A stretch of DNA of 30,956 bases, from the UHGV virus genome UHGV-0133295; one strand, given 5' to 3'. Each line of letters starts with the position of its first letter. Position 1 is the stretch's first letter. The stretch is from a virus. This document shows, one piece after another, positions 24,001-30,000 of this stretch. Made by a program: the position numbers.

Positions 24001-27000
24001 AGCATTAATTAAAAAAGGCTTCCAGCTTGAAGGCTTTAATACGGTTTTCACTTCTTAATAAAAGGAATAATAATAAATGATTCTAGGTAATGATTACGTT
24101 GATTTAGCCCCGCTTTTCCAGGCACACAGCACTAGAAACTATCTGCTCTCTACCCTTGATTTTACGGATTCTGTAGGGGTTACATCTCATAAAGTAGCTG
24201 TTTCCCAGCTTGTCGAAAGCAACGAATCTCTGTTCAACAAAGAAACCTCTCGTTTCTCTTCTGAACACAATGTTACTAAGCGAGAACAAGGTAAAGAATG
24301 GCTGATTGAAATCCCGTATTTTCTTCGTGAAGATGTGATCCGTCCTTCTGATGTTCAAGGCAAACGTAAGCCAGGCACTGATTTTCAGGAAACACTCACT
24401 GATATCTATGCGGAATATATCGCTAAACACAATGTTGCATTCCAGCGTACTAAAGAGAGCGTGTTGGCGGCTTCTTTGTTCTCTGGCAAAACTTACACGC
24501 CTAAAACTGATGATGTGTTAATTGAGTGGGGCAAGCTGTTTAATGTGACACCTATGAAAGCCACTGTGACCGCTTCCAGCACTGACACCACGAAGATTTT
24601 TAAAGAATTTGATCAGATTGCTACGAATATTATCGACAGAGCACAAAGCCAGGCGTCAGCGGTAGAGCGTATTGTTGTTTTCTGTAAGCCGGAAGCCTTC
24701 TCTGCAATTCGATTCTCTGCGGGTATGGCAAACGCATTCCAGTATGTAAGCCCACTGGAAGAGGGGAACGTTGTGTATCAGCGTCGTGACCTGCTGCCAG
24801 GGGTGACAGCGTTCACTATTCCAGGAACTAACATTGATGTTGTTAAACTGGTAGATCCGCTACACCTTGCACATATGACCGCAGACGCTGTAGCTGTGCC
24901 TAAATTCGCTAAAGGCTCTAACGTATATCAGAACATCTACGGGGCTGCTTCCAGCACCTTTGAACTGATTAATGCCACTCCTACTGAGGTGTACAGCTAT
25001 AGCTATGAATCTTCTCGTGGTGATGCTGTTAACGTTGTTACAGAGAATAGCCAGATGGTTGTAAACCACGGTGTAGGCTTCTCCGTTCAAATCACTGTTA
25101 AATAATATTTTAACGTGTAATAGAGGCGTGGCGTGAATAACACGCTTCGCCTTTTTTTATTTATTTTTTTAAATTTTGAGAGGTGATTAAAATATGGAAG
25201 TGATTTTGAAATCAAAAAATGGTGTACACGTACATTTAGATGCTAATGATTCTAGAGGCTTGTTAAATCTGAAATATCTATGTTCTCTCTTGGATGTTCC
25301 CTATGAAGGCGTAAAAGCCCGTATGTTCAGATTAAACGAGAGTATTGATCAGGCTCTACACCATTTCTTAAGCAAAGAAGGTGGTAAGAATGATTAATAA
25401 GGGGATTTTAAATGTTAGAAATTAACACTTCTAAAATTAAGAACACAGTAACATTTAGTGTAGATAAAGACAGCTTAAAAAAAGCGAAAGACTCTATTAC
25501 AGGCTTAAAGGAATTCGCAGAAAACATCAAGCCAGCTAAATTAAGATTTGATAGCGTCACTAAAGGCTATAAGAAAGCACAAAGTGAAGTAGACAAGATT
25601 GCTCAACAGAAAGCGAAAAACGAAAAACAGAATCAAAGAGCACAAGCTGCCGCAGCAAGAGCACAGGCAAGGCAACAGCAACAAATAGCAGCACGTAAAG
25701 AGAAAGCAGAATTAAAACTCCTTGATGTGTCAAGCTCTATCAGTGCAATGCACCGCCTCTCTGTAGCGGAACAATACAAAGCTATTGCACAGGCTAGAGA
25801 GATAGCAAAACAATATGAGCAAGGGGCTATCTCGCTTGCACGTATGAATAGCCAGATGAAACGCCTACAACAGCAACAACGTAAGATTAATGGCAACAGA
25901 AAAACTCAATTAGCCCCCGTTAAGGGAGGAGGATCAGGGAATTCCGCCACTATGGGCGCTCTGTTATTTGGAGGCGCTACGGCGGCTGCTGGCGTGATGG
26001 CTGCAAGCAAAACCGCCGAGTTTATGGCTAATAGCTTCGCTAACGCAGAGACCCAAGGGGAGCTAATTCAACGTGCGAAGCTGGGCGGTGTAGACGTTAA
26101 CCAGATGTATAATATTACAGAATGGGCGTATAAAAACGGCGTTGACTCTATGATGGGTGATCAAGGGGCTAGGAAATACCTGGATCAGATGAAAGATGTT
26201 AGGGAACGTGCCGCAAAATCCTACAGTGAAGCTGAATTAGTGAAAGACAAGAAAACCGGAAAATCTGAATGGAAAGGCGGTGATAACGCTATTAATGAAC
26301 TTCTAAACATCGGAGTTATTAACAAAAGCGACCTTAAAAAATTTGCTGATAATCCAGCCGGATTAATTTCTAAGGCTGTTAATGGAATGATGAAAAAAGG
26401 GTTTTCAGACTCCCAAATTGGACAACGTTTAGAAGACCTGGGCGATGATTTGATGCTTACATCAAAATATTGGCAACGTTCCGTTAAAGATGTACAAGAA
26501 AGTATTAATCAGCAAAAAGCCTCTGGAAAATGGCTAACAGAAACACAGCAAGACTCTATTGTTAAATTCAGAGAACTAAACAGACAGCTTTCACAGCTTT
26601 CTGATGCAAGGCAAGTAGCATTTGTAGACGGCTTTATGAAATCTCTTGATCCAAAAGTAACGGAAGAGTTTATGAAAAACCTTTCTAATCTCACTCCGTA
26701 TTTTACGAAGCTGGGAGAAGCTACAGGAAGTCTCTTTGAAGCTATTATGAAGATTGTAAACTGGTTTAATCGTAATGATGATAAGACAGATGCTATTCAG
26801 AAAAATATGGGAGATGCACCGCCATTAAGCAATGAAGGAATGAAACAGAATCTTTCTAATCTCGTTCCTGATCAATATAAAGGCGCTGGCACTGCAACAA
26901 CTACACCTGATAATAGTCATTCTCTCTTTAACACTATTAAGGGATTGCTTTTCGATGATAATGCTTCTTCTGTGTCAGATGTAAAAATGTCAGTCAGCGA

Positions 27001-30000
27001 AGCACCGATAACCAATCTCAAACAGGGTGCTTTAAATAATCTTGCAATGACAACTCCGGCTTATAATTTATCTCCTGTGTTTAATCTGAATCCTACATTT
27101 GAAGTGGTAACAGAAGTTCCTCTTACTATTAATTCTGACACATCCAGATTAAGCGATTATGTGGATTTTACAGCGAGAGCAAGTCGGGATAGCTTCTTGA
27201 AATCATTAACATTAACCAGCTTATCAGGACAATCTAACGGCGGGTAATTCCCGCCATAACATTACAAGGAAATTATTATTATGGCGACCGCCGGGATTTT
27301 AACCATACGAGCAGCAAATACTCAAGAACAAGATGTAAACTCTACAAAAAACGAAAATAGCAAAGCCAATAAAACAAAAGGGGAGAATGGATTTGCTATT
27401 GTCACCAGTGGGCTGGCATCTTCTGGTAATGACGTTTATGAAAATTATATGGCACTGGCCTTTGATAGTGTAGACGATGTGAACGTGAGACGTTCGGCAG
27501 ATGTCACAAGCTACCCCGTAGAAAATGGTGCTACTGTGTCTGATCACGTTCAAATTAAAAACAATAAGTTTTCTCTTAAAGGAAGGATCACTGAAACACC
27601 GATTAAAAGCGATCCTGGCTTGTTAAAGAGTGCAGGGGTGAACGGGAACAGAAGATCATTAGCTATAGACTACCTGAATCAGATTATGGACAGTAGACAG
27701 CCTTTTCTTCTTGTTACAGAAAATAAAACTTTTGAGAACGTTGTTTTAACAGGCATCGAATACACAGAAGAGGCAAGCGAATCCCTGGTATTTGATCTTA
27801 GCTTTGAGCAGATCAGGCTCGTTTCGTATGGCACTGTAAACACTGTAGCTATCAAAACACAGCCATCTAAGAACATAGGGGCGAATATGAAAAAACGTGT
27901 TAACACTGAAAAATCAAGTAGTGAAGGTGAAGACACTATTACTCCTGCCTTTAAACAGGAATAGCCGTAAACACCTCTAAAACGCTCTGTAACGATGTAA
28001 TTATAAAAGAGGCTACCAATCTATGTTGAAGCCTCTTTATTGTGTCTATGGCGTTGTTTTACGCCTTAAATTTGATTTTTTATTGATTGATAAGCCTTTC
28101 TCTATTTCAGGGTAGCGTAGAAGCTCAATATAGTTTTTAAGCTCTACTGGAGAAGCTGCATTCTTGCTATATGTGCGGAATGTTTCTGTATTACCGCGTG
28201 TATGGCCCAGGAGAAGGGCGATCCTGTCTTCTGGAATTTGATTTCGATCAAGAAGCTGTGCTACTCCGTGTCTCAGAGAATGAAACACCTTCCTTTCTGT
28301 TCCCTTTTCCCCTAAAGCCTTTCGTTTAGCTCTTGTAAATCTCTGCGTGTGCCACGTGGAACGCTTGCCGTCTGCACGTTCTGTGATGCTGGCGTGATAG
28401 AACAAAAAGCCATTATGAGGCTTTTCACGCAGCGACAACACCAACGGAGTGATAAGGCTATGTACAGGCACAACACGTGCCGCAGCTTTCGTCTTTCCCT
28501 GTGTGATTTCAAAACACAGCACACCTTCGATCTCTTTCACATCGTCTATGGTGAGACTTGCTATCTCATTGATCCGCATACCTGTATAAGCACCGATAAG
28601 ACACAAAGCTATCATTTCTTTGTTTTCTGCTGAATTACCGGAAAATACTTGCAACACCTGCAATAACTCTTTGTTAGAAAATGCCTCGTAGCTCTCTCTA
28701 CTTTGTGCCACATCAAGCCTATGCCCTCGCCAGGGGGAGAGCGCCCTTTCTGGCGCATCGTGGTAACGTGATGAAGCTAATTCCCATAGCTGGGCCATTG
28801 GGCTGATATAATTTGCAATTGATTGTTGTGAAAGGGTTTTTTGCATGTGTTCAATCCAGCCTGTAACAGTGGTTCGGCTCACATCTTGCAATGCAATATC
28901 AGGCTTTTTACGGTAGGAGAGAAACATCTCTACCGCTTTTCTTGCCTTAGCTAAAGTGGCTGGCTTCTTCTTCGTGCTGTTAATTGTCAGGTAGATTTCA
29001 AGAATTTTAAGCAATGACGGACACGAAGACGCTGTATCTTGCATTCTGGTAGCTGTTTTGGCGTATTTAGCCTTACTGCGTAACAGTTCCAGCGTGTTTT
29101 CTATTGTGCTGTTTACAGGGGCAACACTCTCCCGTAAGCAATGGTATTCATCTGCAATCTGATCACGCTTTCTACGTGCAACACGAAGGTTACTTGTATG
29201 CAGACTCCTGACAAACGTCCTTTTTCCTTCAAAAAAGGGCTGCATATACACAGGCAGCGTGATCCTTAAATAGTAGTTACCGTAAGAATCACAGATTATG
29301 TATTGATTGGGCTTGTATCTCATAAACTCCCCGGCTAAAGTGTCGGAGCGTTTGTAATGTGAAAATTGATTGTAACGCATAGAAAATGATGATTTTTTCT
29401 ATAAGATTCAATCAATTAGTAATGGTCGTAGGTGATGGCATTAACACGAGATTAATCGAGTGTTTTACTCCTATTATCGGCACCATTCTAACGTCTCCCC
29501 AAGTCTACTCAAGTATTTAAAAACCTCTTATAATCAGTATATTAATGCCCCTTTTAGTCTTTTGACGTCTATTTAAGTACCCCAAACTCTACAAGCAATT
29601 GAGGGGATTTGCTGTTCAGTTTAGTGGAGATACCCCCAAGTGAAACTCAATGCCCGTCAAATAGACACTGCCAAGCCAAAAGAGAAGGCTTACAAGTTGG
29701 CTGATGGTGGTGGTCTGTACCTCCTGGTAAAACCTGGTGGAGGAGAATATTGGCGTCTCAAGTATCGTGTAGCTGGTAAAGAGAAGCTGTTAGCACTAGG
29801 TGTGTATCCTGAGGTCACCTTAGCTGATGCTCCTGCAAAACTTGAAGAAGCTAAAAGAGGTATCTCTGGGGGAATCGATCTGATGGAAGTGAAGCGAGAG
29901 GAAAAGATTGCCCGGGAAACGCAGTTAAACAACACCTTCAAAGATATTGCCCTTGAGTGGCACAGTAACAAATTATAATCACAATAATAGTGTATATAAT

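Follow-up and report, generated by a model that had tools for sequence, protein, structure and literature searches.

The question raised by this locus is what a protein built like a tail tape measure protein (TMP) is doing in a small integrated element in which neither a tail tube nor a sheath gene is detected. The window analysed here is the whole 30,956-nucleotide stretch of DNA of UHGV virus genome UHGV-0133295. The gene in question lies in a 12.3 kb integrative element (referred to below as the island) and encodes a protein of 611 residues. A preliminary description of the window had reported an open reading frame (ORF) with a coiled-coil-like N-terminal region, a glycine/alanine-rich segment and further helices, all of which were confirmed, and had remarked that such an architecture would fit a tape measure; this is now borne out by homology that spans the full length of phi92 and Phapecoctavirus TMPs. 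Because the island can be read as a phage satellite, the puzzle of a TMP without tube and sheath genes is largely resolved. On balance we favour the reading that the protein is a functional TMP, carried by an element that parasitizes virulent phi92-like (Stephanstirmvirinae) myophages.

Homology to phage tape measure proteins

The PHROG family phrog_16051, annotated as 'tail length tape measure protein', matches residues 127–611 with an E value of 9.5e-54, and PDB entry 21vq chain V (Phi92_gp134) matches the protein at 4.9e-37 with both termini aligned. The remote-homology searches thus returned TMPs rather than a housekeeping or unrelated protein family. The relatives found in the phage collection are annotated TMPs of 145–150 kb virulent Stephanstirmvirinae myophages (phi92-like Justusliebigvirus and Phapecoctavirus); for the TMP of Phapecoctavirus phiWec188 the tblastn match extends over residues 1–609 (27% identity, 6.6e-56). 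This homology identifies the protein as a genuine TMP, a new and divergent member of the known family.

Relatives of the protein were divided into an island type and a phage type, the division being verified by genomic context for nine island and three phage members and assigned by sequence features for the others. Four modules are common to both types (an N-terminal motif, a hydrophobic segment, a central domain and a C-terminal peptide), and with phi92 gp134 and the other Stephanstirmvirinae TMPs of PHROG 16051 the island protein shares a helical region as well. The N-terminal motif is the most conserved block between the two types (0.51), and the cross-group identity of the central domain (residues 241–360) is 0.39–0.51. 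The lengths do not overlap, island-type proteins having 596–625 residues and phage-type proteins 634–659. A proline/glycine-rich tract occurs in every phage-type TMP examined and in no island-type one, and an arginine/glutamate-rich coil, present in all phage-type TMPs examined, is missing from the island protein. The first phage-type representative, P0133 (634 residues), was found within a 140 kb myophage contig together with TAC_15, a 79-residue ORF and Dit_like, hub and spike genes.

The island protein differs from the phage TMPs in its overall identity of about 27–38% and in being 40–48 residues shorter, and its gene resides in a 12 kb integrated element, whereas theirs reside in virulent genomes of 145–150 kb. 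As in phi92, phiWec188 and contig L019, the tmp gene stands directly upstream of a tube-initiator gene (in the island the gap is 34 nt); unlike in the phages, no TAC_15 chaperone gene stands ahead of it. At 1.5–1.6 Å per residue, a TMP of 611 residues predicts a tail 6–8 nm shorter than those of phi92 and phiWec188, the TMPs of which have 651–659 residues.

Compared with phi92 gp134, the N-terminal 42 residues are 71% identical, against 27% overall. The C-terminal 42 residues share 64% amino-acid identity with the phiWec188 TMP, while the identity at third codon positions is just 26%, which is near random. With this level of amino-acid identity, and with third codon positions near random at the C-terminus, both ends of the protein have been kept by protein-level selection; such constraint is as expected for ends that would have to fit partners made by a helper. 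In a cryo-electron microscopy study of phi92 from 2026 (PMC13450770), gp134 was described as a trimeric TMP with C-terminal residues 631–656 resolved inside the baseplate. The same study assigned the tube initiator, a hexamer, to gp135, the capsid protein (T=13) to gp124 and the cement protein to gp123. By alignment, residues 570–611 of the island TMP are the equivalent of the hub-docking C-terminus of gp134, and docking is predicted for them.

Protein architecture

A ribosome-binding site (AAGGGGA) lies 7 nt ahead of the start of the 611-residue ORF. A chance ORF is ruled out because intact orthologues occur in hundreds of genomes, with ratios of nonsynonymous to synonymous substitution rates (dN/dS) of 0.12–0.21, and because homologues at 25–39% identity share its length and layout. 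Residues of approximately 44–167 are rich in Gln, Ala, Lys and Arg (by composition and heptad scan, the fraction of Gln, Ala, Lys, Glu and Arg reaches 0.82) and were modelled by AlphaFold2 as long helices with pLDDT values of 73–93. The model of the whole protein has a mean pLDDT of 57.6; residues 211–380 are confidently predicted as a compact helical domain, and the C-terminal third, in which Pro, Ser, Thr and Asn are abundant, is of low confidence. A search of Pfam found no domain in the protein. A hidden enzymatic or otherwise known fold in the central domain was considered and rejected, since neither Foldseek against the PDB (best E value 1.1) nor Pfam gave a match.

The hydrophobic segment (residues 172–199) carries stacked small-xxx-small motifs and aligns with the corresponding segment of phi92 gp134. 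Its Kyte–Doolittle maximum over 19 residues, 1.47, marks it as hydrophobic although, as a classical transmembrane helix, only as a borderline case. We consider the segment to be a putative membrane-active part of the protein; insertion of a hydrophobic segment into the membrane during DNA ejection fits what is generally known of TMPs.

The presence of this glycine/alanine-rich segment also invites a different explanation, in which the protein would be a membrane superinfection-exclusion or toxin-like factor expressed from the integrated island and its glycine-zipper-like segment would block the entry of phi92-like DNA. TMPs are toxic and membrane-active when expressed (PMC11838301), and some exclusion systems, described in the HK97 gp15 literature, act at the TMP-dependent entry step. 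However, the hydropathy is borderline for a stable transmembrane helix, the whole TMP architecture and both assembly termini are conserved although exclusion would not require them, and the gene belongs to a late-type operon behind terminator-like hairpins (23394–23418 and 25130–25146) together with the capsid and tube-initiator genes. We regard this explanation as highly improbable.

DNA shared with the phi92 terminal repeat

A BLAST search of the ORF-poor region of the island against phage genomes gave a short stretch matching 63 phi92-like phage records. Its 40 nt core is identical to phi92 at 40 of 40 positions. The direct terminal repeat of phi92 is annotated at 1–343 (343 bp), so that the matched stretch straddles the inner boundary of the repeat, and the match falls at identical coordinates in other phage records that begin at the physical genome end. 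The surrounding block (approximately 18303–18391) is invariant in 13 distinct island copies while its flanks vary freely, and is the most conserved non-coding DNA of the island; even where the TMP of an island variant has diverged to 88–89%, its 40-mer is an exact match. A second short box shared with the phages, CCCC-CAAATATCA (CCCCAAATATCA), is located about 20 nt downstream of the 40-mer. Exact copies of the 40-mer were found in 14 IMG/VR contigs.

From its position, the 40 nt element is a candidate mimic of a packaging or cleavage signal, at which terminase would process concatemers. The TMP homology, the conservation of the gene module and this DNA link to the proposed helpers are direct observations. 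Directly upstream of the element, at 18233–18295, there are A-rich repeats phased at about 10 nt (…ATAAATAGCTATAAATACATCTAAATACCTATAAATACATCTAAATACC…) in which the motif TATAAATA recurs; the array could be bent DNA or a set of protein-binding sites.

Neighbouring structural genes

The preliminary description held that the island has no tail tube or baseplate genes. Tube and sheath genes indeed remained undetected, but the part about the baseplate does not stand: the gene following tmp (Table 1) encodes a tube initiator, which is a central baseplate component. Its product matches PDB entry 21vq chain N (Phi92_gp135) at 1.2e-68, the 'tube initiator' chains 9cuy_K and 7yfz_a match it too, and it shares 55.8% identity with Justusliebigvirus homologues. 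The preliminary description had also mentioned DNA-ejection or pilot proteins; one of P22 type need not be invoked, and such genes sit in a separate P22-like prophage at 1–16000.

The major capsid protein (MCP) matches Phi92_gp124 in the PDB at 9.4e-07 over residues 5–337. The relative order of the MCP gene, tmp and the tube-initiator gene is the same in the island as in the phage, and the two small ORFs of the module occupy matching positions: the 120-residue ORF that of the phage cement or decoration gene and the 67-residue ORF that of the small ORF preceding tmp. Comparison of the 120-residue protein with the phi92 cement protein gp123 gave a BLASTP E value of 1.1 and an hhalign probability of 1.7%, a profile search of the PDB was empty, and the AlphaFold2 model (pLDDT 39) is unusable. 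Its family was found in Escherichia, Citrobacter, Klebsiella, Kluyvera and Leclercia. An ORF of 60–76 residues precedes tmp in every related island. In the island studied here, the 67-residue product gave only sub-threshold PDB matches of helix–turn–helix or sigma-region-4-like type (E values 0.2–0.7), and its candidacy as the phi92 gp133 equivalent or as a tail chaperone was rejected because no similarity was seen. In size it is close to PLE11 Rta (80 residues), without evidence of relatedness.

The promoter upstream of the module, at 23183, has the near-consensus form TTGACA-17-TAATAT with a TG, and the hairpin about 180 nt further on, which is strong, has a 9 bp stem and a T-run; the motif AATATCTTGACA is common to four of ten islands. 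Two good sigma-70-like promoters were found, at 20717 and 23183, the regional total of promoter-like sites being not above chance. The second terminator-like hairpin separates the MCP gene from the 67-residue ORF and tmp. In its sequence features, this layout of promoter and hairpins resembles late-operon control by antitermination.

Organization of the integrative element

The island that holds tmp is bounded by 25 nt repeats derived from thrW. The features identified in it are listed in Table 1.

Table 1. Features of the island in UHGV-0133295, with window coordinates and dN/dS values for the structural module
Feature	Coordinates	Strand	Basis	dN/dS
Left attachment repeat, 3' end of tRNA-Thr thrW	17155..17179	.	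Repeat family; flank matches thrW region of other E. coli	
Conserved non-coding element	18303..18391	+	40 nt core 18316–18355 matching phi92 nt 318–357	
Iteron-like direct repeats of 21–22 nt (GGGGTAGGTCATAGTGAACTA and variants), 5–6 copies	19329..19632	.	Repeat search	
Replication initiator-like protein (HTH_36)	21265..21981	+	phrog_270 5.8e-09, phrog_428 8.2e-07	
Sigma-70-like promoter (23183–23211), then terminator-like hairpin (23394–23418)	23183..23418	+	Consensus scan	
Conserved 120-residue ORF directly upstream of MCP gene	23696..24058	+	Present in all related islands	0.14–0.15
MCP, 342 residues, HK97 fold of lambda gpE type	24077..25105	+	Pfam Phage_cap_E 2.8e-16	0.125
Conserved 67-residue ORF directly upstream of tmp	25194..25397	+	Synteny, dN/dS	0.03
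TMP gene, ATG start, 611 residues	25412..27247	+	ORF check, homology, dN/dS	0.12–0.21
TMP N-terminal conserved motif, residues 1–42 (MLEINTSKIKNTVTFSVDKDSLKKAKDSI...)	25412..25537	+	71% amino-acid identity with phi92 gp134	
TMP long helical, coiled-coil-like region, residues 44–167	25541..25912	+	AlphaFold2, composition, heptad scan	
TMP Gly/Ala-rich hydrophobic segment, residues 172–199 (GGGSGNSATMGALLFGGATAAAGVMAAS)	25925..26008	+	Kyte–Doolittle, small-xxx-small motifs	
TMP conserved central helical domain, residues 211–380	26042..26551	+	AlphaFold2, pLDDT 72–93	
TMP C-terminal motif, residues 570–611 (...SRLSDYVDFTARASRDSFLKSLTLTSLSGQSNGG)	27119..27244	+	Aligns to gp134 residues 617–658	
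Tail-tube initiator (Dit-like), 227 residues	27281..27964	+	Pfam PF21821 Dit_like 2.9e-29	0.055–0.07
Tyrosine integrase, DUF6538, SAM-like and catalytic domains	28046..29380	-	PF00589 3.2e-17, PF20172 4.1e-09, PF13102 2.8e-07	
Right attachment repeat	29462..29486	.	23/25 nt same as left repeat	

Searches of the island ORFs against Pfam and PHROG gave no portal, terminase, protease, tube, sheath, wedge, fibre or lysis gene. With such an incomplete set of virion and lysis genes, the element would have to depend on a helper. Of the generic traits of a satellite, it shows those of a small integrative element with an integrase, attachment sites, evidence of mobility and incomplete virion genes.

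The replication initiator (Rep)-like protein scores 23.6 bits against Pfam HTH_36, slightly under the 25-bit cutoff, and HTH_36 proteins occur at the matching position in related islands. Besides the iteron-like repeats there are three copies of the 18 nt repeat ACCTAGGAAATGATTTCC at 19427–19502, and AT-rich repeats at 19513–19543 and 19667–19697 are flanked by the two direct-repeat sets. The repeats at 19329–19632 look like a putative iteron-type replication origin for the nearby Rep-like gene. They fall within approximately 3.7 kb (17180–20860) that is nearly devoid of convincing ORFs; in the APEC O1 copy, RefSeq places one or two tiny coding sequences there. Related islands have 1.3–1.9 kb of similar non-coding DNA at the equivalent position. 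As regards structured RNA, the ORF-poor 3.7 kb gave no Rfam match at the gathering threshold and no tRNA genes.

At thrW, the P22-like prophage and the 12.3 kb island are followed in tandem by a third mobile element, the vat pathogenicity island, of which the window contains the start. Window positions 1–16000 are the late region of the P22-like prophage, with an endosialidase tailspike gene at 12950–15895, and the GC content falls at about 16 kb. After the tailspike gene, tandem heptanucleotide repeats, (AAGACTC)n, at 16038–16107 lie upstream of an acetyltransferase-like ORF fragment (16420–16755) that appears to be split or out of frame. The repeats and the fragment appear to correspond to neuO, which in the K1 prophage CUS-3 encodes a phase-variable O-acetyltransferase. 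The beginning of the vat island shares 99.9% identity with APEC O1 and comprises a truncated Arm-DNA-binding integrase pseudogene (29640–29978) as well as a gene for a regulator of the MarR family. In APEC O1, the 12.3 kb island has thrW on one side and the vat toxin gene on the other.

Distribution, selection and mobility of related islands

An exhaustive HMMER scan of 1.84 billion cluster representatives yielded just 76 related TMP representatives. Of 5426 complete E. coli genomes, 486 (about 9%) carry the tmp gene. A scan of GTDB genomes with one peptide pattern returned four loci, and the family is greatly under-sampled in it. The nine island-type TMPs with checked context (this window, P0122, P0123, P0126, P0127, P0128, P0130, P0131 and a Kluyvera georgiana locus) all lie within syntenic islands of 10–14 kb. 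The gene order of these islands is Rep, small ORFs, the ORF of about 120 residues, MCP, the ORF of 60–76 residues, TMP, sometimes the tube initiator, and integrase; MCP and TMP are always kept in Enterobacteriaceae islands of this type. Between the present island and L004, ten collinear genes share 32–59% protein identity. The same thrW/vat locus also harbours another lineage of islands, the tmp gene of which shows about 70% nucleotide identity. This second lineage was seen in about 180 of the complete E. coli genomes, among them L012 (FDAARGOS_1298); one tmp copy of this lineage is mis-annotated in RefSeq as 'flotillin family protein'. In E. coli strain Res13, the island was found at a second chromosomal site, beside a truncated srsR gene.

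Two related elements assemble as circles of about 14 kb, L009 (ENA ERZ27247433, 14403 nt) and L010 (Logan SRR7500800, 14065 nt), with terminal overlaps (141 and 30 nt, respectively) that match the k-mers of the assemblers. L010 encodes a partition ATPase of ParA/CbiA type, which hints at a plasmid-like episomal state. The values of dN/dS were computed against two E. coli variants, and there were no internal stops; at 0.03–0.21, the structural module is under purifying selection.

These data bear on the possibility that a temperate relative of phi92-like phages is decaying to leave the island, with tmp as a functionless leftover. The element holds a subset of structural genes only, the 17180–20860 segment is nearly free of ORFs, and RefSeq calls tmp hypothetical. 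Yet all ORFs of the module are intact and constrained, and the gene set and the 10–14 kb size recur at 25–55% protein identity over several genera. Moreover, the element has its own Rep with iterons and attachment sites, relatives of it form circular contigs, and it occurs at more than one integration site. The phi92-like phages known so far are virulent, and a large prophage of the lineage was not encountered. A remnant is accordingly a very unlikely account of the locus.

Some accessory features were observed in the relatives. A second, short ORF with a Phage_integrase domain (185–187 residues) stands at the end opposite the main integrase in most related islands (as seen at the left ends in the set L004, L006, L007, L008, L010 and L021) and is not found in the island of this window. 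Beside it lies variable cargo, which includes a Dam methylase, a Shedu SduA_C protein, Rap1a and a DEAD-like helicase, and the left ends of the related islands look like a defence or accessory hotspot. In L021 (GCA_000957525.1), the related island adjoins a P4-like satellite (integrase, cII, Psu and Ogr/Delta) at 13156–18066, so that two types of satellite are stacked.

Comparison with known satellites

The closest functional parallel is PLE, a satellite of the virulent myophage ICP1 in Vibrio cholerae, with which satellite-encoded TMPs were first demonstrated in 2025–2026 (PMC11838301, PMC12987554). The TMP, tail chaperone and hub protein encoded by PLE are 20–41% identical to their ICP1 counterparts; PLE virions contain the TMP and hub protein of PLE and exclude those of ICP1; the tails are 94.5 nm long against 105.9 nm for ICP1, with TMPs of 582 and 677 residues; PLE11 deleted for tmp shows a drop in transduction of about 99.9%; and PLE11 Rta, of 80 residues, blocks the ICP1 TMP (PMC11838301, PMC12987554). 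Satellite-built chimeric tails have thereby been shown experimentally for PLE and ICP1 (Nature 2026, PMC12987554), and the concept of a satellite TMP already has an experimental precedent.

The island would resemble PLE in being a small integrating element that lives as a satellite on a large virulent myophage and encodes a TMP and a central baseplate protein of its own. The element sizes are similar, the satellite versions of these proteins are 20–55% identical to those of the helper, and the satellite TMP is shorter than that of the helper (582 against 677 residues in PLE, 611 against 651–659 here). The two differ in that PLE has a tail assembly chaperone and the hub protein BhuB, whereas the island has a tube initiator and no recognizable chaperone, and in that PLE uses the ICP1 capsid protein with the PLE scaffold TcaP, whereas the island encodes an MCP itself. 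For PLE the mechanism has been proven by experiment, whereas that of the island is a proposal, and the likeness is functional and organizational only; the phage search with the TMP gave no Vibrio phages among the named hosts.

The comparison with PLE also brings up the possibility that the TMP homologue is mainly a weapon of interference, a dominant-negative poison of helper tail assembly acting at the hub and not needed for transfer of the island itself. Satellites commonly sabotage the assembly of their helpers, and tail assembly is a known target (Tai, PMC11364771; Rta, PMC11838301). The conserved docking termini would permit competition at the hub, mixed trimers of unequal length are conceivable as TMPs are trimers, and the island has no chaperone gene. 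On the other hand, the formation of particles is suggested by the capsid gene, the tube initiator and the terminal-repeat mimic that the element also has, and the PLE TMP is incorporated into virions and required for transduction (PMC12987554). The two functions are not mutually exclusive and a part played in interference is plausible, but we think it unlikely that interference is the main one. The Tai tail-assembly-inhibition systems themselves (PMC11364771) were set aside as unrelated.

With cf-PICIs (e.g. EcCIEDL933), the island shares the form of a small integrative E. coli element (10–15 kb) with its own HK97-fold capsid protein, and some cf-PICIs are reported to carry putative tmp genes (PMC12987554). 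By definition, cf-PICIs have portal, prohead protease, head–tail connector, HNH and TerS/TerL genes with an int-alpA-rep arrangement, lack tail genes and use temperate siphophages as helpers. Membership was rejected, since the island ORFs gave no portal, protease, connector, HNH, TerS or TerL match and tail genes are present. A P4-like satellite was likewise rejected, as the searches of Pfam and PHROG found no psu, sid, delta/ogr, alpha primase or P2 cos hallmarks; the genuine P4-like element in L021 (Psu, Ogr_Delta and cII) looks quite different from the related island next to it. The EPIPs, 11 kb satellites of a Mycolicibacterium prophage (PMC12822802), combine an MCP and a TMP on a small genome, as the island does, and their particles have an altered tail length. 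Compared by description only, they differ in being actinobacterial and in having a temperate siphophage helper, a serine integrase and TerS, adaptor and stopper genes. According to that study (bioRxiv, December 2025; PMC12822802), TMPs are unknown in satellites other than EPIPs and PLE11. In the full-text literature, from which subscription journals were outside the coverage, no description of the island as a satellite was found.

A satellite can also carry a diverged version of a structural gene of its helper without any tail component. SaPIbov5 encodes Ccm, a homologue of the capsid protein that redirects capsid size; in contrast to the island, this system concerns the capsid only and belongs to a Gram-positive host with a siphophage helper.

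Proposed role of the tape measure protein

In our reading of the island as a satellite of phi92-like myophages, its TMP probably replaces the TMP of the helper in hijacked tails, as the analogy with PLE suggests. On the same analogy we infer induction, packaging, incorporation into virions, tail shortening and a selective benefit, in the following order of events. On infection by a helper phage, the island would excise, replicate and express its structural operon. Trimers of its TMP would dock by their C-termini in the baseplate hub of the helper, beneath a ring of the island tube initiator, and the tube and sheath of the helper would polymerize around the docked protein. The product would be chimeric tails about 6–8 nm shorter than those of the helper. 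On contraction the TMP would be expelled, and the glycine/alanine-rich hydrophobic segment would help the DNA to cross the inner membrane. Possession of its own tail core would free the island from the need for the helper TMP and might confer immunity to inhibitors that act on that protein, as in PLE.

A wider proposal, which we put forward tentatively and judge to have somewhat less than an even chance, is that the islands form an undescribed Enterobacteriaceae satellite family living on phi92/Phapecoctavirus-like myophages, with doubly chimeric virions (capsid shell, TMP and first tube ring from the satellite; tail from the helper) packaged through a mimic of the terminal-repeat boundary. 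In a bolder extension, the ORF of 60–76 residues would encode an Rta-like inhibitor of the helper TMP to which the satellite TMP is immune.

Several points weigh against the island being such a satellite, in addition to the partly feature-based division of the TMPs into types. Identity of the MCP with the MCPs of rV5/phi92-like phages is just 22–26%, and the true helper may therefore be unsampled. The tube initiator is absent from several related islands (L006–L009 and L014) and is not essential to the island family. No tail assembly chaperone, terminase subunit or portal is recognizable in the island, whereas the phages have TAC_15, although the chaperone of the helper may serve the island TMP; the 67-residue ORF resembles neither phi92 gp133 nor a tail chaperone and has no Pfam or PHROG match. 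As for the shared DNA, the 40-mer is absent from the divergent islands at up to 10 mismatches (<=10), and the non-coding regions of the divergent islands L006 and L021 match no sequenced phage. The IMG/VR contigs with the 40-mer are prophage predictions from isolate genomes and two true phage contigs, with no virome evidence of encapsidation. Finally, the 40-mer could instead be a regulatory or replication site.

Implications

If the proposed role is correct, the island would be an independent case of a satellite TMP in E. coli, the most tractable model organism, with therapeutic-type virulent phages (phi92 and Phapecoctavirus) as candidate helpers. To our knowledge, it would be the first known case in which a satellite-made capsid protein is combined with a satellite-made tail core. 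The 40 nt match to the terminal repeat would offer a handle on the poorly known packaging signal of phi92-like phages. Where Stephanstirmvirinae are used in phage therapy, the element may influence how the treatment turns out and, lying beside the vat toxin island of avian pathogenic and uropathogenic E. coli (APEC/UPEC), it would bear on how such regions move.

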